From Kofleriaceae bacterium (GTDB taxonomy: Bacteria; Myxococcota_A; Polyangia; Haliangiales; Haliangiaceae): a stretch of DNA of 49,810 bases. The notes below the pieces were generated by a model, which saw nothing but the letters and a program-made list of their open reading frames with translations, was not told where the DNA came from and made no database searches. This document shows, piece by piece, positions 24,323-40,749 of this stretch. Position 1 is the first letter of the stretch, and each line of letters opens with the position of its first letter. Position numbers and translations under genes: made by a program. Where the stretch lies: contig JBKJLC010000292.1 in NCBI GenBank assembly GCA_046597055.1, forward strand, positions 1 through 49,810, read 5' to 3'.

Positions 24323-24330
24323 TGCCCTTC

Positions 24331-24701
<371 letters not shown>

Positions 24702-30993: not shown

Positions 30994-32400
30994 GTGAGCA
31001 CGATCGTGATTGCCGGGGCAACCGGCTTCGTGGGGAACGCGCTGGCGCAGCGGCTGGCCGGTCGCACCCAGGACCCGCTCGAGGTGGTCGGGCTCACCCG
31101 CGGCCGCCGCGAGGCGGCGGGGGCGTGGTCCCGGCTGGTCACGTGTGACCTGTTCTCGCTCTCCGACGTGCAGGCCGCCCTGAAGGGCGCGCGGTTTGCG
31201 GTGTACCTGGTCCACTCGATGCTGCCGTCGGCGCGGCTGGTCCAGGGCAACTTCGCCGACCTCGATCTCATCTGCGCCGACAACTTCGGGCGCGCGGCCA
31301 AGGCGGCCGGGGTCGAGCAGATCGTGTACCTCGGCGGGCTCATTCCCGACACCGAGCCGCTGTCGAGCCACCTGGCCAGCCGGCTCGAGGTCGAGGCCGC
31401 GCTCGGCTCGCACGGCGTGCCGGTGACGACCTTGCGCGCCGGCATCGTGATCGGCCCGGGCGGCTCGTCGTTCGAGATGCTGGTGCGGCTGGTGCGCCGG
31501 CTGCCGGCGATGATCACGCCGCGCTGGTGCGATCACAGCTGCCAGCCGATCGACCTGGGCACGGTCACCGCGCTCATCGACCACGTGGTCGGTCGGGTCG
31601 AGTGTTACCACCAGACCTACGATATCGGCGGGCCCGATATCCTGAGCTACCGCGACATGCTGCTCACGGTGGGCGCGCTGCTCGGCACCCCGCGGCGCGT
31701 CTACCGGTTCCCGCTGTTCACGCCGCGGCTGTCGCGGCTGTGGGTGTCGCTCATCACCGGCGCGCCGCGCGCGCTGGTCGCGCCGCTGATCGACAGCCTG
31801 CAGCACGACATGGTGTGCCGCGATCGTCGGCTGCAGGCCGCGGCCGACCTGCCCGGCATGAAGTTCCGCGACGCGGCGGCGATCTCGCTGGGCGCGGCCG
31901 CGGCCACGCCCGGCACCGCGCTGCCGGTGGTCTACAAGGCGGCGCCGCGGGTGACCCCGACCGGCGTGCGCTCGGTGCAGCGGATCGAGCTGCCAGGCGG
32001 CCGCGACGCCGAGTGGGCTGCCCACGAGTACATGCGCTGGCTGCCGCGTGGCGCCTGGCCGTTCCTGCGGGTCGACGTCGACAACCAGCGGACCTGCTCG
32101 TTCTACCTGAAGGGATCGCGGCGGCCGCTGCTGGTGCTGACGTTCGCGGCCGAGCGCAGCGCGTCGGACCGACAGCTGTTCTACGTGACCGGCGGCGCGC
32201 TCACCCGCGCCAGCAAGCGCGGTCGACTCGAGCTGCGGGTCACGCCCGACGGCGAGCACCTGCTCACCGCGATCCACGAGTTCGTGCCGCGGCTGCCGTG
32301 GTGGCTGTACCGAGTCACCCAGGCCCTCGTGCACCGCTGGGTCATGGCGCGGTTCGGCACTCACCTCGGCCGCCAGCGCGCGCTGCCCGCTGCGGCGTGA
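30994..32400 (+). CDS. Atypical SDR / NAD(P)H-binding protein (YbjT-like) with C-terminal DUF2867-like domain
   Basis: [11 protein letters not shown]ossmann motif, [31 protein letters not shown]. Start set at GTG 30994 from the promoter position (ORF open from 30973). Confidence 0.85.
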
Positions 32401-32968
32401 GCTGGGCGCCGAGCGCGTCGTCGCCGGCGAGCACGGCATCCTCCGCGTCCGGGGTCCGGGCCAGCCGCAGCTGCTGCCGCGCCCGGTGCGCGCGGATCTT
32501 CACGTTCGCGACGGTGATGCCGAGGCGGCTCGCGGTCTCGGCCTCGCTCAGCTCGGCGCGCAACATCATCACCTCGCGATACTTCGGCGCCAGCTGGTCG
32601 AGCACGCGCTGGGCCGCGAGCGCGAGCTCGCGATCGGCGACCATCGTCTCGGGCGAGCGGGCCGGGTCGGGCACCTCGCGATCGACCTCGTCGGCGGTCG
32701 GCGCCAGGTGCTCGCGCGAGCGCTTGCCACGTCGGAGATGATCGAGCGCGGTGGTCGCCGCGATCCGGTAGAGCCAGGTCCGGTAGCGCGCGTCGCCGCG
32801 GAACGAGTCGCGGTGGCGGTAGGCCAGCAGCATCGCGTCCTGGGCGACGTCGTCGGCGGCCTCGGCGCTGTGGACGATGCGGCGGGCGACCGAGTACACG
32901 AAGTTGCGCTCGTCGCGGCCGAACTTCATCTCGTCACGGGGCCGCGCGGTCTCGGTGAGGGTCGTCAT
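32342..32968 (-). CDS. ECF RNA polymerase sigma factor
   Basis: [25 protein letters not shown] (region 2); [23 protein letters not shown] (region 4); starts 1 nt after the folE stop with a GGAGG RBS. Confidence 0.9.
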
Positions 32969-32969
32969 G

Positions 32970-33623
32970 TCACCGACCTCCCGGCGCGCGCAGCAGGGCC
33001 ATGACCTCGGCGCGGGCCGCGGCATCGGTCGCGAACACGCCGCGGTGCGCGACCGTGGTCATGGTGGCGCCCTGCTTGGCGACGCCCCGCATCTTCATGC
33101 ACATGTGCTCGGACTCGATCACCACCGAGACCGCGCGCGGCTCGAGGTGCGTCATCATCGCGTCGGCGAGCTGCCGGGTCAGACGCTCCTGGACCTGCAG
33201 CCGGCGGGCGAAGGTCTCGACCGCGCGCGCGATCTTCGACAACCCGACCACGCGGCCCTCGGCCGGGAGATACCCGACGTGCGCCACGCCGGAGAACGGC
33301 AGCATGTGGTGCTCGCACATGCTGTGCATCTCGATGCCGCGCACCACCACCAGCTCGTCGCCACCCTCGTGGAAGATGGTGCGGAGGTGCTCGCCGGGGT
33401 CCTCGCCGAGCCCGGCGGTGAGGTCGCGGTACGAGCGCGCCACCCGCGCCGGGGTGTCGGCAAGGCCCTCGCGATCCGGGTCCTCGCCGATCGCGATCAG
33501 GATCTCGCGCACCGCTCGGGCGATGCGCGGCAGGTCGATGACCCGCGGCGAACGCGCCCCGCCGACAGCATCGCGACGGGTTACCAGCCGCTGCGTGGAC
33601 GAATTAACATCCAAGTCGTTCAT
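32970..33623 (-). CDS. folE: GTP cyclohydrolase I
   Basis: [55 protein letters not shown] box 7 nt upstream of ATG 33623. Confidence 0.96.
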
Positions 33624-33636
33624 AACGTCCACCATA
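33596..33636 (-). promoter_or_regulatory. Putative operator array plus -10 box at the folE start
   Basis: Minus strand TGGACGTTA-TGAACGACT-TGGATGTTA (9-bp period) followed by an inverted copy ATTCGTCCA; adjacent -10 TATGGT at 33631-33636. Confidence 0.5.
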
Positions 33637-33749
33637 CGCCGCAAAACGGTCAGCGCTAGCGAAAAACGTTCGAACTACACAACCGGTTGAAACTTTATGG
33701 GTATGTTGCCGTGTCTTCGACCGGGCCCCAGGTACCCCGCCTCCTATTT

Positions 33750-33775
33750 GTAACCTGGCTGACTTCGAAGGCGTC
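33750..33775 (+). promoter_or_regulatory. Putative ECF sigma promoter (copy 2)
   Basis: GTAACC-N16-CGTC, 10 nt before ATG 33786. Confidence 0.65.
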
Positions 33776-33785
33776 TCCTCGTCCT

Positions 33786-34631
33786 ATGCGTCTGCTGTCC
33801 CCCAAAGAGCTCGCCGAGGCGCTCGGTGTGAGCGAGTCGTCGCTCAAGCGGTGGGTGGACGCGGGCAAGATCGCGGCGGCACGCACCGAGGGAGGTCACC
33901 GCCGGATCGCGCTGCCCGAGGCGGTCCGGTTCATCCGCGAGACCGGTGCGCCGCTGGCCCGGCCCGAGCTCCTGGGCATGCCCGAGGTCGCGGTCGCGCA
34001 GGCCCGGGTCGCCAGTGGTGATGCCCTGCTCGAGGCGCTGCTCGCCGGCGACGCGGTGGCCGCGCGCGGCTGGCTGCTGGCGCGCTACCTGGCGGGTGAC
34101 TCGGTCGCCGCGCTGTGCGACGGGCCGATCCGCGAGGCGATGCACCGCATCGGCCAGCTGTGGCAGCACGACAGCGAGGGCATCTTCGTCGAGCACCGGG
34201 CCACCGACACCTGCCTGTACGCGCTCATGCACCTGCGGACCTCGTTCGACCCGAGCGGCGAGGCGCCGGTCGCGATCGGCGCGGCGCCCGAGGACGATCC
34301 ATACCTGCTGCCGTCGCTGAGCGCGGCCACCGTGATCGCCGCCGGCGGCATGCGCGCGGTCAACCTCGGCCCCGACACGCCGACCAGCGCGCTCCACCAC
34401 GCGGTCATCCGCCACGCGCCACGGCTGGTCTGGCTGAGCGTGAGCGCCGCGCTCGAGCCGGTGCAAGCTCGCCAGCTCGGGCGCTGGCTCACCTCGCTAC
34501 CGCCGTCGGTGATCGCGGTGGTGGGGGGACGCGAGAGCGCGTCCGTTGCCGACGCGCAGCCGGGCATCCGGCGGGTCGAGACGATGACCGAGCTCGCCGC
34601 GATCGTGGCCGACATCGTCTCCGGCCGCTGA
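33786..34631 (+). CDS. MerR/BldC-type HTH regulator with CarH/LitR-like B12-binding fold
   Basis: LLSPKELAEALGVSESSLKRW..RTEGGHRRI HTH; IGQLW-x9-EH helical-bundle motif; Rossmann NLGPDTP, LVWLS, VVGG; canonical E/DxHxxG replaced by DPYLLP. Confidence 0.82.
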   Translation: MRLLSPKELAEALGVSESSLKRWVDAGKIAAARTEGGHRRIALPEAVRFIRETGAPLARPELLGMPEVAVAQARVASGDALLEALLAGDAVAARGWLLARYLAGDSVAALCDGPIREAMHRIGQLWQHDSEGIFVEHRATDTCLYALMHLRTSFDPSGEAPVAIGAAPEDDPYLLPSLSAATVIAAGGMRAVNLGPDTPTSALHHAVIRHAPRLVWLSVSAALEPVQARQLGRWLTSLPPSVIAVVGGRESASVADAQPGIRRVETMTELAAIVADIVSGR

Positions 34632-34670: not shown

Positions 34671-35201
34671 ATGAACCGAACCTGTCTGACGCGCCTCCCC
34701 ATCCTGCTCGGCCTCGCCCTCGCGGCATGCGGCTCGAGCGCACCGGCCGCCACCGAGCCGGGCATGGCATCCACCGAGCCCGCGGCCGCCGAGCCCACCG
34801 CCAACATCATTCAGACCGCGGTCGCGGCTGGCTCCTTCAAGACCCTGGTCACCGCGGTCGAGGCCGCCGGCCTGGTCGCGACCCTCGAGGGCCCGGGCCC
34901 GTTCACGGTGTTCGCCCCGACCGACGAGGCGTTCGCCAAGCTGCCGCCGGGCACGCTCGAGGCGCTGCTCGCCGACAAGGCCAAGCTGACCGCGGTCCTC
35001 ACCTATCACGTGGTCGCCGGCGACGTGAGCTCGAGCGCCGTCGCCGGGATGAAGTCGGCCACCACGGTCCAGGGCAGCGCGGTCGCGATCGACGCCAGCG
35101 CGGGCGTCAAGATCAACGACGCGACCGTGATCAAGGCCGACATCAAGGCGACCAACGGCGTGATCCACGTGATCGACACCGTGCTGCTGCCCCCGTCGTA
35201 A
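34671..35201 (+). CDS. Fasciclin (FAS1) domain lipoprotein
   Basis: LAAC lipobox; [33 protein letters not shown]. Confidence 0.95.
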
Positions 35202-35231: not shown

Positions 35232-35639
35232 ATGAACGGTGTGCTCCCAGACGGCAAGACGGTCGAGGTGTTCTACGACGGTGACTGTCCGCTGTGCATG
35301 CGCGAGATACGCATGCTCGGACGCCTCGACCGCAAGGCGCGCATCGAGTTCACCAACATCGCGGCGGCCGACTTCGACGCCGCCGCCCTCGGCACCACCT
35401 ATCCGGCCCTGATGGAGCGCATCCGCGGGCGGCTCGCCGACGGCACCTGGATCGAGGGCGTCGAGGTGTTCCGGCGCCTGTACGCCGCGGTCGGCTTCGG
35501 CTGGCTGGTCGCGGTGACCCGCGTGCCTGGCCTCTCGCACTTGCTGACGCTGGGCTACCGGGTCTTCGCGAAGAACCGACTGAGGCTCACCGGCCGGTGC
35601 GCGCCCGACGGGGCGTGTGCCGTGCCGCGCGCGTCGTAG
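35232..35639 (+). CDS. DCC1-like thiol-disulfide oxidoreductase (DUF393)
   Basis: [10 protein letters not shown] motif; [17 protein letters not shown]. Confidence 0.9.
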
Positions 35640-36924: not shown

Positions 36925-38502
36925 ATGGGGGCGACGCAGGAGGACGACCGCTTCGAGCTCCGTGGTGAGCTCGGCGCCGGCTCGTCGGGCACCGTCTACC
37001 GCGTGCTCGATCGCCGCCGCGGTCACGAGGTCGCGCTCAAGGTCCTGCGTCGCTTCGGCGGCGCTGACCTCTACCGGTTCAAGCGCGAGTTTCGCGCGCT
37101 GGCCGGCCTGGCCCACCCCAACCTCGCGACCCTGCACGAGCTCTACGCGGTCGGCGAGGAGTGGATGTACACGATGGAGCTGGTCGATGGGGACCCGTTC
37201 GATCGGTGGGTCCGGCCGGGCGGGTCGGTGGCGGCGATCGACGCCGACGAGCTCGCGGGCACCACCACGCTGGTGCGGCGCAGCGGCCCCGGCGCCGCGG
37301 TCGACCTGGGCCGGCTGCGGGCCGGGCTGATCCAGCTCGCCGACGGGCTGACCGCGCTGCACTCGGTCCACAAGATCCACCGCGATCTCAAGCCGAGCAA
37401 CGTCCTCTGCGATCGGGCCGGGCGCGTCGTGATCCTGGACTTCGGCCTGGTGATCGACGCGGTGCGCGCCGACCGGACCCACGACGGGCGGCCGATCGGG
37501 ACGGTCGCGTACATGTCGCCCGAGCAGGCCGCCGCCGTGGCGCTGACCGCCGCCAGCGACTGGTACGCGGTCGGGGTCATGCTGTACGAGGCGCTCACCG
37601 GGATCCGGCCGTTCCGCGGCGCCGCCCACGACGTGCTCCTGCGCAAGCAGCTCGAGGACCCGCCGCTGCCGTCGGTGATCGCGAGCGGGGTGCCCGCTGA
37701 TCTCGAGCAGCTGTGCGGCGCGCTGCTCGCCCGCGATCCGCTCCGACGCCCGGTCGGCGCCGAGGTGCTGGCGGCGCTCGGCGCCACCCCCTCGTCCGCG
37801 TCGGTGGCGCTGGCGGTGCGTCCGGCGGCGCGGCCGGCAGACCCGGCCGCGCTGGCCGCGCTGCTCCAGGCGCTGGAGGACAGCCGCGAGCACTTCGTCG
37901 CGGTGGCGGTGCTCGGTCGGGCCGGCGCTGGCAAGTCGGCGCTGCTCGAGCAGTTCGCCGAGGAGGCCGAGCTCCGGCAGCACGCCTGCATCCTCTACGC
38001 GCGCAGCGACGGCCGCGAGCAGTCCATGTTCCCGGCCCTCGACCAGCTCATCGACCAGCTGGGCGGGGTCCTGCTGGCGCTGCCGCCCGAGGCGATGGCG
38101 GCGGTCGCGCCGCTGGCGACCCCGGTGGCGCGGGTGTTCCCGACCCTGCGCCGGGTGCCGGCGTTGCGGGCCCCGGCCCTGCCGAGCGCGACGCCTCCGG
38201 ATCCGGCGCGCGTGCTCGAGCGCGCGCTGGTGAGCTTTCGCTCGGTGATCGATCACCTCGCGGGAGAGCGGCCGCTGGCCATGTGCGTGGATGGCGCCGA
38301 GCACACTACCGTCGACGGCGCCGCCACGTACAGCCGGCTGTTCACCGTGACGGAGGCCATGCCGCGCGCGATGTTCGTGCTCAGCCACCGCAGCGAGCCC
38401 GACCAGGGCGGCCGCGCGCTCGCCGCGCTGCGCCGGTGGGCCGACGACCAGGGCGGCGACGTGCGCTGGATCGATCTCGACGCGCCCCCTAACACCCTCT
38501 GA
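36925..38502 (+). CDS. Cytoplasmic Ser/Thr kinase with short C-terminal P-loop (AAA_16-like) domain, paralog 1
   Basis: GAGSSG, ALK, HRDLKPSN, DFG, YMSPE; Walker A GRAGAGKS. Confidence 0.9.
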   Translation: MGATQEDDRFELRGELGAGSSGTVYRVLDRRRGHEVALKVLRRFGGADLYRFKREFRALAGLAHPNLATLHELYAVGEEWMYTMELVDGDPFDRWVRPGGSVAAIDADELAGTTTLVRRSGPGAAVDLGRLRAGLIQLADGLTALHSVHKIHRDLKPSNVLCDRAGRVVILDFGLVIDAVRADRTHDGRPIGTVAYMSPEQAAAVALTAASDWYAVGVMLYEALTGIRPFRGAAHDVLLRKQLEDPPLPSVIASGVPADLEQLCGALLARDPLRRPVGAEVLAALGATPSSASVALAVRPAARPADPAALAALLQALEDSREHFVAVAVLGRAGAGKSALLEQFAEEAELRQHACILYARSDGREQSMFPALDQLIDQLGGVLLALPPEAMAAVAPLATPVARVFPTLRRVPALRAPALPSATPPDPARVLERALVSFRSVIDHLAGERPLAMCVDGAEHTTVDGAATYSRLFTVTEAMPRAMFVLSHRSEPDQGGRALAALRRWADDQGGDVRWIDLDAPPNTL

Positions 38503-38505
38503 CGC

Positions 38506-39171
38506 TCACGCCGCGACGGCGATCGGCGACGCGTCCAGGTGTTCGAGGAGGTCCTGGGGACCGTCGTAGATGGCGAGGGCGCCGGCGAGGACCCGATCGG
38601 GCTGGCCCCCGGAGCGGACGGCGATCGTCCAGATGCCAGCGCGCGTGGCGGCCTCGACGTCGTACTCGGTGTCGCCCACCATCACCATCTGCTCGGGCGG
38701 GAGGTCGAGGCGCGTCATGGCAGCGGTGACGATGTCGGGATCGGGCTTGGACCGCTCGGCATCGTCGGACGTGGTGGCGAGCTGCGCGAGCCAGGGCGCA
38801 CCGAGCACGGCCAGGAGCCCGGCCAGCTCGTCGCGGCGCGCCGAGGTGGCGATTCCCACCGCTGCGCCCAGCGCGCGCAGCCGCTCGACCAGGTCACGGG
38901 CACCGGGGAGCGGGCGCACAGTGGGAAGCTGACGCTCGGCGAACAGCTCGGCACGCCGGTCCCCGAGCGCGAGGGCGCGCTCGTCGTCGCTGGTCCAGCC
39001 GGTGATCTCGGTGATGAGCTTGTCCCCGCCCATCCCGATCAGCGGACGGACGCGTCCGAATGGGATCAAGATGTTCTGCTCGGCGAACGCTTGCACCCAG
39101 GCGCGGGCGTGGGCGTCGTTACTATCGACCAGGGTGCCATCGACATCGAAGATCACACCAAAGCGGGCCAT
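38506..39171 (-). CDS. HAD-IA family hydrolase/phosphatase
   Basis: IFDVDGTLVDS, ATS, SKPDPD, VGDTEYD. Confidence 0.92.
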   Translation of the reverse strand: MARFGVIFDVDGTLVDSNDAHARAWVQAFAEQNILIPFGRVRPLIGMGGDKLITEITGWTSDDERALALGDRRAELFAERQLPTVRPLPGARDLVERLRALGAAVGIATSARRDELAGLLAVLGAPWLAQLATTSDDAERSKPDPDIVTAAMTRLDLPPEQMVMVGDTEYDVEAATRAGIWTIAVRSGGQPDRVLAGALAIYDGPQDLLEHLDASPIAVAA

Positions 39172-39222
39172 ACCGCCCGTCCACTGCATGGGGTGCGCCA
39201 AGGGGCGGAGTACGATGCGCCG

Positions 39223-40749
39223 ATGGTTCCGGACGCCGTGGAAAACGAGCGCTTCGAGCTCCGCGGCGAGCTGGGCATCGGCGGCGGGGGCGCGGTCTAT
39301 CGCGTCTTCGATCGCGAGCGCGGCATCGAGGTGGCCCTCAAGATGCTGCGCCGGGTCGGCGGGCCCGATCTCTATCGCTTCAAGCGCGAGTTCCGCGCGC
39401 TGGCCGGGCTGGCCCATCCCCACCTGGCCACACTGCACGAGCTGTACGTGGTCGGCAGCGAGTGGATGTACACGATGGAGCTGGTCGAGGGCGTGCCCTT
39501 CGATCAATGGGTGCGCACGCCGGGCGACGGCCCGGAGCCGCCCGGCGTGCTCGACACCGCCCGGCTCCGCGACGCGCTGTACCAGCTCGCCGACGGCCTC
39601 ACCGCGCTGCACGGGCTCGGCAAGCTCCACCGCGATCTGAAGCCGTCGAACGTGCTGTGCGAGCCGAGCGGCCGGCTGGTGATCCTCGACTTCGGGCTGA
39701 TCGTCGAGCCGGGCTCGGTCGAGCACACCCACGAGCACAGCGCGGTCGGCACGCTCGCGTACATGTCACCCGAGCAGGCCGCCGACGTCCCGCTGACCCC
39801 GGCCAGCGACTGGTACGCGGTCGGCGTCATGTTGTACGAGGCGCTGACCGGCGTCCGCCCGTTCCGCGGCGCGACCCACGACGTGCTCCTGCGCAAGCAG
39901 CGCGAAGACGCGACCCCGCCCTCGGTGGTGGCGCCGGGTGTCCCGCGCGATCTCGCGGCGCTATGTGCCCGCCTGCTCCATCGCGATCCGACCCGCCGGC
40001 CCGACGGACCGGCGGTCCTCGCCGCGCTGGGCCAGACCGAGTCACTGGCGACGATCACGACCCTGAGCCGGGTGCACGCACCTCCCGCGCCGGCGGCGCC
40101 GGCGGCGATGGACGCGCTGCGCCAGGCGCTCGCGGCCAGCCGCGACCACTTCGTGCTGGCGGTCGTGCACGGCGACGCGGGCAGCGGCAAGACCGCCCTG
40201 CTCGACGCGTTCCTCGACGAGGCGCGGGTCGAGCACGACGCGCTGACCCTGGCCGGTGCCGACGATCCGCGCGAGCAGATCCCGCTGTCGAGCATCGACC
40301 AGGCGCTCGATCAGCTCAGCTCGTACTTCATGGCGCTGCCAAAAGCGGGGGCGGCGGCGCTGCTGGCCGATGCGGCCCCGCTGGCGCGTATGTTCCCGGC
40401 CCTGCGCCGGGTGCCCGCGCTGCAGGTGCCGGTGCTCCCGCAAACCAGCGTGCTCGGGCCGGACGAGCTCCGCCGCCGCGCCTTCGGCGCGCTGCGCACG
40501 ATCCTGGCTCGGCTCGGCCTCACCCGCCCGGTCGTGCTCGCGTTCGACAACAACGGGCACGTCGCCGGCGCCGACGCGCGGATCTTCAGCGAGAGCTTCG
40601 TCGGCCCCGACATGCCGCACGCGCTGGTGATCGCCAGCTACCACTCCGACCTCCTGGCGACCAGCCAGTCGCTCGCCGACCTGCGCCGCTGGGCCGACCA
40701 GATGCAGGGCGACCTGCGCTTCGTCGGGCTCGACCCGCCCGACGCCTGA
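39223..40749 (+). CDS. Cytoplasmic Ser/Thr kinase with short C-terminal P-loop domain, paralog 2
   Basis: GIGGGG, HRDLKPSN, DFG, YMSPE; Walker A GDAGSGKT; long near-identical stretches with paralog 1. Confidence 0.9.
   Translation: MVPDAVENERFELRGELGIGGGGAVYRVFDRERGIEVALKMLRRVGGPDLYRFKREFRALAGLAHPHLATLHELYVVGSEWMYTMELVEGVPFDQWVRTPGDGPEPPGVLDTARLRDALYQLADGLTALHGLGKLHRDLKPSNVLCEPSGRLVILDFGLIVEPGSVEHTHEHSAVGTLAYMSPEQAADVPLTPASDWYAVGVMLYEALTGVRPFRGATHDVLLRKQREDATPPSVVAPGVPRDLAALCARLLHRDPTRRPDGPAVLAALGQTESLATITTLSRVHAPPAPAAPAAMDALRQALAASRDHFVLAVVHGDAGSGKTALLDAFLDEARVEHDALTLAGADDPREQIPLSSIDQALDQLSSYFMALPKAGAAALLADAAPLARMFPALRRVPALQVPVLPQTSVLGPDELRRRAFGALRTILARLGLTRPVVLAFDNNGHVAGADARIFSESFVGPDMPHALVIASYHSDLLATSQSLADLRRWADQMQGDLRFVGLDPPDA

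Follow-up and report, generated by a model that had tools for sequence, protein, structure and literature searches.

Lower-axial His is treated as obligatory in CarH-type sensing, and the locus described here raises the question of what a regulator of this family binds when that residue is replaced. The regulator is encoded in a 49,810-nt stretch of Kofleriaceae DNA, called the window below. A preliminary description had noted that the protein keeps the W-x9-EH motif, reads APEDDPYLLP at the site of the cobalt-ligating His, and carries RTEGGHRR in a BldC/Xis-type helix-turn-helix (HTH) domain. It proposed that the protein binds a Tyr-ligated tetrapyrrole, base-on B12, or a pterin or folate derivative made via the adjacent FolE, or else that it senses through a partner protein. 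The features of the locus are collected in Table 1.

Table 1. Features of the regulator locus, in window coordinates
Feature	Position	Strand	Remarks
ECF-type promoter GTAAC-N16-GCGTC (predicted)	30959-84	+	before epimerase
NAD-dependent epimerase	30994-32400	+	related to DUF2867-bearing neighbors of relatives
ECF sigma factor, LitS-like role (predicted)	32342..32968	-	starts 1 base after folE stop; longest ORF begins 33025
folE, GTP cyclohydrolase I	32970..33623	-	likely start ATG 33623, probably leaderless; first gene of predicted repressed operon
Predicted operator, 9-bp direct repeats, consensus wwwCG(T/G)(T/C)CA	33596..33652	.	repeats 33605-13, 33614-22, 33623-31, 33644-52; inverted core 33596-601
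ECF-type promoter GTAAC-N16-GCGTC (predicted)	33750..33775	+	10 nt before regulator ATG
Tyr-type CarH/CtMerR-like repressor (predicted)	33786..34631	+	HTH_17 domain 1-53, four-helix cap 80-151, Rossmann domain 160-279
W126-x6-I133-x2-E136-H137, adenosyl-face cap	34161..34196	+	equivalents of CarH W131/V138/E141/H142
D171-P-Y173-L-L-P176, loop after strand 1	34296..34313	+	Tyr173 at cobalt-ligand His position, by alignment
W216-L-S218-V-S220-A221, strand 3 and its loop	34431..34448	+	
G247-G248, nucleotide-tail pocket motif	34524..34529	+	kept in 495 and 498 of 503
ECF-type promoter GTAAC-N16-GCCTC (predicted)	34636-61	+	before fasciclin lipoprotein
Fasciclin lipoprotein	34671-35201	+	
DUF393/DCC1-like protein	35232-35639	+	

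The gene is a 281-aa open reading frame (ORF) of coding-type composition (GC1/2/3 = 0.76/0.54/0.93), and the three sequence features are all present in it as described. The cap reads W126-QHDSEGIFV-E136-H137, with W-x9-EH intact; RTEGGHRR occupies residues 33-40 of the HTH; and the APEDDPYLLP loop contains Tyr173 (codon TAC, 34302-34304). This Tyr aligns with His204 of CtMerR (DLHEI) and His177 of TtCarH (ERHEI). Thus, the cobalt-ligating His is indeed replaced, and ordinary His-on binding cannot apply. When set against the published B12 motif, D/ExHx2G/P-x41-SxT/V-x22-27-GG (PMC9304148), the regulator has D171, P176, the x41 spacer, S218, an x26 spacer, and G247-G248 all at the expected spacing, so that in the alignment His-to-Tyr at 173 is its sole departure. 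The tail-pocket motif here reads S218-V-S220, and position 220 is Thr in 20% of the clade. The Pro of DPYLLP had also been counted as a deviation, namely loss of Gly. That point falls away, since the motif allows G/P and SasPcob, a characterized AdoCbl photoreceptor, has Pro there too (EWHALP). From the SignatureFinder signature, GQLW, EH, and GPDTP are present, and GxxH fails, reading DDPY.

Pfam recognizes HTH_17 (E 4e-10), B12-binding_2, and a sub-threshold B12-binding domain in the protein. Its HTH scores above the cut-off of TIGR01764 and below that of NF033787 BldC (35.5 vs 77 bits), and the NCBIfam CarH model gives 37.6 bits against a cut-off of 400. The monomer model (pLDDT 97) has the CarH fold. 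Its best fold match is CtMerR (8JBS; Z 19.8, rmsd 3.6, 215 aligned), on which Foldseek agrees, followed by photocobilins (Z 19.5 for 8J2W and 19.2), TtCarH (5C8D; Z 17.2), and the AppA SCHIC domain (4HEH; Z 15.2). The closest structural matches of the model are thus AdoCbl photoreceptors. CtMerR is also the best sequence hit (E 2e-22; profile E 2e-46).

CtMerR, from Chloracidobacterium thermophilum (8JBS/8JBT), shares with the regulator an HTH_17-type DNA-binding domain, the W-x9-EH cap, the Rossmann domain, and the GxxW, EH, and GxxxP motifs (PMC11796333). It binds AdoCbl and passes from tetramer to monomer in light (PMC11796333). It differs in having His204 where the regulator has Tyr173 and a Cys in place of W216, and the ligand and photochemistry proposed below for the Tyr regulator are predictions. 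The BldC/Xis-type HTH of the preliminary description therefore stands as a domain assignment, given the HTH_17 match, but not as a novelty, since CtMerR has the same type and TtCarH has RTPGGHR. With HTH type and Pro176 already known from characterized photoreceptors, Tyr173 is the new part, and the most fitting label for the protein is that of a Tyr variant within the CtMerR branch of the CarH family.

That DPY might be a subfamily signature is borne out by the homologues. Tyr173 occurs in 117 of 119 close homologues, in 130 of 150 representatives of 50%-identity clusters (∼41-77% identity; the best 150 of 581 such clusters at E <= 1e-30 to the query), and in 468 of the 503 sequences of a pooled clade comprising all proteins and loci, minus duplicates and rows gapped at 173 or 216. 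These counts rule out a sequencing error or a private mutation. The remainder of the pool has His (13), Ser (7), Gly (4), Phe (3), Thr (3), Ala (3), Cys (1), or Asp (1) at this position, so homologues that keep His, which would have spoken against the idea, amount to only 13 of 503. In a FastTree phylogeny rooted on three canonical CarH proteins, the Tyr sequences form one clade (support 0.98), and the sister group consists of 120 His-type HTH_17 proteins (118 with His); CtMerR itself is not in the tree. Matches were obtained in 27 of the 44 genomes from the window's family (E <= 1e-20; the named relatives are Kofleriaceae), in at least 46 of 301 genomes of Planctomycetota, the phylum of an Isosphaeraceae record, and also under Acidobacteriota labels. 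The Tyr173 clade spans Myxococcota and Planctomycetota. Our search, confined to open-access literature, returned no description of this Tyr variant or of Tyr-ligated cobalamin, and the supplements of PMC11796333 and PMC9304148 could list members. A sister group with W-x9-ER in place of EH (14 of 503; loci L179-L183, L141, and L029) mostly retains Tyr173. Two Tyr-clade paralogues adjoin each other in single genomes (L196, G407:C96; L195, G573:C1), and at another locus (L147) a His-type HTH_17 regulator (EHHDIG) adjoins GTP cyclohydrolase II.

Among the 503 clade sequences, D171 is kept in 502, S218 in 450, W126 of the Trp cap in 483, E136 in 500, R138 in 465, and W216 in 490. Cap residues W126, I/V/A133, E136, and H137 are all kept together in 164 of 171. 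Against this background, positions 173 and 221 covary. His221 is found in 16 of 18 rows with a small residue at 173, in 25 of 468 with Tyr173, and in 0 of 13 with His173; this association (Fisher 4e-17) is the strongest among all columns from 75 to 275. By approximate lineage counts, from a tree in which several branches are poorly supported, the small-173 rows fall in 13 separate lineages, 11 of them with His221, and His173 returns in 10. The two small-173 lineages that lack His221 have also lost W-x9-EH, and 11 of the 13 His173 rows have Pro172 replaced. This tree, built without columns 172-174 and 220-221, comprises every non-Tyr and every His221 row, the cluster representatives, and 60 others picked at random, for a total of 242 clade rows. 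Phe stands at 173 in 3 of 503 sequences, vs 80 of 503 at the control column Tyr101. Because Tyr173, His173, and His221 replace one another and Phe is avoided at 173, a donor atom appears to be required at the lower face. This requirement in turn leads us to infer that the regulator binds a metal tetrapyrrole, with a donor side chain under the ring. Positions 173 and 221 lie in the loops after strands 1 and 3, respectively, and in MetH, TsrM, TokK, and OxsB it is these two loops that occupy the lower side of the corrin (PMC13331322). His221 could nevertheless be a space-filler rather than a ligand. On the tail side, W216 is clade-specific, bulkier than the Ala/Val/Cys of His-type relatives, and covaries with G165 (Gly plus aromatic in 166 of 171). 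It may narrow the tail pocket. The summed side-chain volume of eight pocket positions is 1009, vs 927 in His-type relatives, while that of G165 and W216 (287) is close to the V+V of TtCarH (280).

A homodimer model of the regulator scores 0.72 against 0.00 for the best control; the mark was reached by 20 of 30 solved pairs and by 1 of 23 single chains. At least 80% of contacts are shared between runs, with partner pLDDT of at least 83 and an interface of residues 130-152 against 192-206. Heme was included in the modeling and left unscored, and the pass may reflect likeness to solved CarH/CtMerR dimers. In the model, I133 and H137 are interface residues, and their conservation therefore need not mean adenosyl binding.

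We give about an even chance to the reading that AdoCbl is bound base-off, with Tyr173 at the lower face instead of His. Sequence and model show that the fold, adenosyl cap, and tail-pocket residues of CarH are kept, with Tyr replacing His. In this reading, the cavity under the ring would need a donor, supplied by Tyr173, His173, or His221; Tyr173 under the cobalt would act as a weak O-ligand or as the holder of an axial water; and the protein would form head-to-tail dimers as in CarH and CtMerR. The Tyr-ligated tetrapyrrole of the preliminary description is thus the best-supported of its options. Since the adenosyl cap and tail-pocket residues persist, however, cobalamin is a likelier identity for this tetrapyrrole than a new chromophore. 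Cobalamin is also favored because the changes that mark the SCHIC domain are absent and because His-off binding has precedent. Indeed, base-off, His-off cobalamin binding is established in the B12 Rossmann fold (PMC13331322; see also the TokK preprint 10.1101/2021.07.10.451909, PMC9692996, and PMC8828468). TsrM, TokK, and OxsB share this fold, and the residue beneath their ring is not His; in many cases the strand-3 loop provides it (PMC13331322). In contrast to the regulator, these proteins and AppA SCHIC are enzymes or antirepressors, and in the descriptions consulted none of them has Tyr at the strand-1 position. Other observations weigh against cobalamin. TtCarH H177A takes up no B12 (PMC8221060, PMC4557120), the open-access search yielded no Tyr-ligated cobalamin protein, W216 may narrow the tail pocket, and Arg stands at 137 in 14 of 503 clade rows. 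In the CarH photocycle, the His177-Co bond breaks (PMC10442372). The window's genome carries MetH, a mutase, two adenosyltransferases, cobS, and a cobalamin riboswitch. Co-occurrence of such genes was set aside as evidence, being permissive and not discriminating between regulator-positive and -negative genomes: an adenosyltransferase is present in 42 of 43 positive and 19 of 20 negative Planctomycetota, and a mutase is rarer in the positives (21 of 43 vs 15 of 20). The sample covered 43 of 46 positive and 20 of 255 negative Planctomycetota genomes, with residue 173 read for 30 of the 43, and, at the Kofleriaceae level, 16 of 22 chosen positives plus the window's genome. A bolder form of this reading seems to us unlikely: a Tyr oxygen would serve as the lower AdoCbl ligand throughout a widespread photoreceptor class, with a spectrum that is blue-shifted and base-off-like and a photocycle that differs as well. 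Cells that also carry canonical CarH would then read two light qualities by means of one cofactor.

The same circuit could instead depend on a metal tetrapyrrole without a tail, such as heme or cobinamide, with Tyr173 as the axial ligand. The protein would then respond to redox state, to the level of tetrapyrroles, or to photo-oxidative stress, and not to photolysis of Co-C. We doubt this, although the exchange among Tyr173, His173, and His221 suits any metal tetrapyrrole, and Tyr and His commonly replace each other at heme iron. The tail pocket could be occupied by W216, the conserved R138 and R/Q249 could bind propionates, and the canonical CarH in the same genome, described below, hints at a different input for the Tyr-type paralogue. 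Heme binding also has a model in the same fold, the AppA SCHIC domain, which in switching to heme kept its His ligand, lost the Trp cap, and acquired a longer strand-3 loop (PMC9144470). However, the regulator resembles SCHIC in none of these respects: it keeps W126, its loop aligns gapless to CtMerR, and it has no His at 173. E136, which binds the ribose in CarH, is also nearly invariant in the clade, and S218 and the GG motif are kept. Sensing through a partner would make the protein a cofactor-free repressor, released as in CarA/CarS or PmlR2/short LOV, in which Tyr173, His221, and Trp216 only stabilize an empty pocket. This is quite improbable in our judgment. H177A abolishes B12 binding by TtCarH (PMC8221060), CarA and class II LitR drop B12 yet keep similar regulons, folE included (PMC9304148, PMC9758184), and cap residues would double as dimer contacts if the model holds. 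Space-filling, however, leaves unexplained both the avoidance of Phe at 173 and the fact that all 16 compensating residues at 221 are His. CarA has lost the cap Trp, which the Tyr clade keeps, and class II LitR lacks the B12 Rossmann motif; the regulator retains both. Release of PmlR2 depends on a short LOV protein encoded next to it, and none was found beside the Tyr regulator. More generally, no partner, antirepressor, LOV, BLUF, or phytochrome gene recurs among the clustered or scanned neighbor proteins, a search of linked genes only, with 190 ORFs scanned by tblastn with 14 marker queries alone and 142 of 158 in another set scanned with Pfam. The window's genome (94% complete) has no BLUF and no LOV motif, with a LOV DNA pattern at chance level; its one phytochrome leaves room for an unlinked partner.

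The two remaining proposals we consider very improbable. A pterin or folate ligand made via FolE has in its favor that folE is the divergent neighbor in both phyla. Moreover, the class III LitR of Burkholderia (LitR-LitS) is reportedly a UV-A sensor with an unknown chromophore that controls a folE2-litS operon. However, folE lies near only 17 of 125 relatives and is absent from the other 108 loci, a second copy exists elsewhere in the window's genome, and a pterin explains neither the exchange of lower-face donors nor the kept cap and tail motif. Class II (Pseudomonas PplR/PmlR2) and class III LitR proteins are described as having no recognizable B12 Rossmann domain (PMC9758184), unlike the regulator. 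The regulon content of class II LitR (folE, photolyase/cryB, and ECF sigma; PMC9758184), and likewise of class III, matches that predicted for the Tyr regulator. In Pseudomonas, light induces folE (PMC9758184), and the gene is a known target of other LitR regulons. AdoCbl bound base-on, with Tyr173 packing on the nucleotide loop, would account for the missing His ligand, and W216 might block insertion of the tail. It fares no better, in view of the conservation of S218 and G247-G248 and of the donor exchange between 173 and 221, which implies protein rather than dimethylbenzimidazole at the lower face.

Whatever the ligand, the regulator is most likely a dark repressor of a light-protection program. 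The predicted operator overlaps both the predicted -10 of the divergent operon (TATGGT, minus strand, 33636-33631) and the folE ATG. When a matrix trained on other genomes was applied to the window's genome, the site at 33614 scored highest (28.7, with 23.1 for the next). Upstream of 29 loci, the core CG(T/G)(T/C)CA occurs 112 times in 330 nt vs 16 times in equal coding stretches; 44 of these are at 9-nt spacing, and 26 of the 29 loci, two from planctomycetes included, have a 9-nt-spaced pair. Among 74 metagenome loci, 44 have an operator-like pair and 30 have none. The start codon of the divergent gene and a -10 element ∼7 nt before it both fall within the repeats, and many relatives have TTGAC(A/G) at -35; the window's own -35 is degenerate, and a sigma-70 consensus scan of the window returned no site. 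The operator repeats also encode the N-terminal MNDL(D/N) of the first gene, folE or sigma (33596-33631 in the window; loci L004-L028), and unrelated proteins thereby share their first residues.

Repeats of 9 bp fit a BldC-type HTH, by analogy with BldC of Streptomyces, which binds 9-bp direct repeats head to tail (PMC5859096). BldC has the same HTH type, and the repeats predicted here share an AT-rich start with its sites; it differs in being a stand-alone 68-residue domain acting on AATTXXXX(C) repeats (PMC5859096), whereas the regulator has a fused sensor domain. It is useful to contrast the regulator with CarH and class I LitR (T. thermophilus, myxobacteria, and Streptomyces LitR-LitS) as well. 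Domain order, cap motif, and tail-pocket motif are the same, and head-to-tail dimers, repression via tandem direct repeats over a promoter, and pairing with ECF sigma and carotenoid genes are predicted to be so. In contrast, the regulator lacks the lower His, has SLKRWVD in an HTH_17 domain rather than the RxWERRY recognition helix of MerR_1, is predicted to use 9-bp repeats rather than 11-bp TnnACA, and has Pro where R176 forms the dimer salt bridge.

In the circuit that we propose, the HTH would bind the 9-bp repeats over the -10 and ATG of the folE-sigma operon and block it in the dark. By what is known of the family, light would then break the Co-C bond, the oligomer would leave the DNA, and FolE and the ECF sigma factor would be made. 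Sigma would transcribe GTAAC-N16-GC(A/G/C)TC promoters before the fasciclins, the epimerase, cryB, and the regulator itself, the last giving negative feedback. Pairing of LitR with an ECF sigma factor, LitS, is known (PMC11519972). Taken without the identity of the ligand, a repressor/sigma photoprotection circuit is something we hold to with considerable confidence. In 24 of 29 loci, GTAAC stands before the regulator, usually within GTAAC-N16-GCATC; for the metagenome loci the figure is 16 of 74. The three sites in the locus lie 9-10 nt before starts, and others precede a second fasciclin and cryB. Across the window's genome, the pattern occurs 26 times at spacer 16 vs 6-21 at other spacers, and before an ORF 11 times vs 2-7. 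Because this enrichment is modest, the regulon list is a prediction. Around the regulators of 125 relatives, tblastn with 14 marker queries found sigma in 58 loci, fasciclin in 23, DUF1731 epimerase in 20, folE in 17, crtI in 16, a DUF2867-type gene in 15, crtB and crtY in 14 each, TspO in 12, and photolyase in 7, with some marker in 72; these are raw frequencies from loci that are not independent, without a background control.

Several other loci touch on this network. A canonical CarH (RIWQRRY, W-x9-EH, GERHELG) sits at a crtY-crtE-crtI-crtB cluster with a glycosyltransferase on contig C79 of the same genome (L112:3899-11303; L002), and TAGACA/TGTCTA repeats upstream of it resemble the CarH operator. 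By contrast, crtI accompanies the Tyr-type regulator in 16 of the 125 loci of relatives. The crt cluster repeatedly ends with a membrane protein that has no Pfam match (L015:1-636 and 16 other loci; C79:14665-15213 in the window's genome). On contig C247 (5744-5769; L208), GTAAC-N16-GCCTC and an 18-codon ORF precede a CryB/PhrB-type photolyase gene; upstream of this cryB lies a C-terminus that we take to resemble class II ribonucleotide reductase. The idea that folE supplies the antenna of a class I photolyase was dropped, since the genome has no PF03441 match and only the CryB/PhrB type. On contig C233 (L113:7400-11740), a second fasciclin with the same ECF-type site is followed by cobS, a cobalamin riboswitch (L113:9048-9272), a YncE-type propeller, and a periplasmic binding protein, and a CobA adenosyltransferase lies on the same contig. 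The cobS and B12 uptake genes are not counted here as members of the sigma regulon; the uptake genes have their own riboswitch. At a single locus (L184; G315:C11:148187-148687), the regulator has a PduO-type adenosyltransferase ∼3 kb away. Elsewhere in the window are a class A RNase P RNA (24330-24698, minus strand) and two similar tandem Ser/Thr kinase-AAA genes (36925-40749, plus strand), with a HAD hydrolase match on the opposite strand (38506-39738).

The Tyr clade is large and unstudied, and its members are found within clusters of photoprotection genes in Myxococcota and Planctomycetota that have seldom been cultured. The GxxH filter of the published mining signature omits it by construction. 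Its natural His173 and His221 variants form a ready ligand-swap series. If Tyr-type ligation of cobalamin proves true, it would be a new coordination chemistry for photoreceptors and possibly a color-shifted optogenetic part. If the ligand is heme, the clade would represent a second cofactor switch in the B12 Rossmann fold, and if a partner protein is the sensor, it would point to a new antirepressor.
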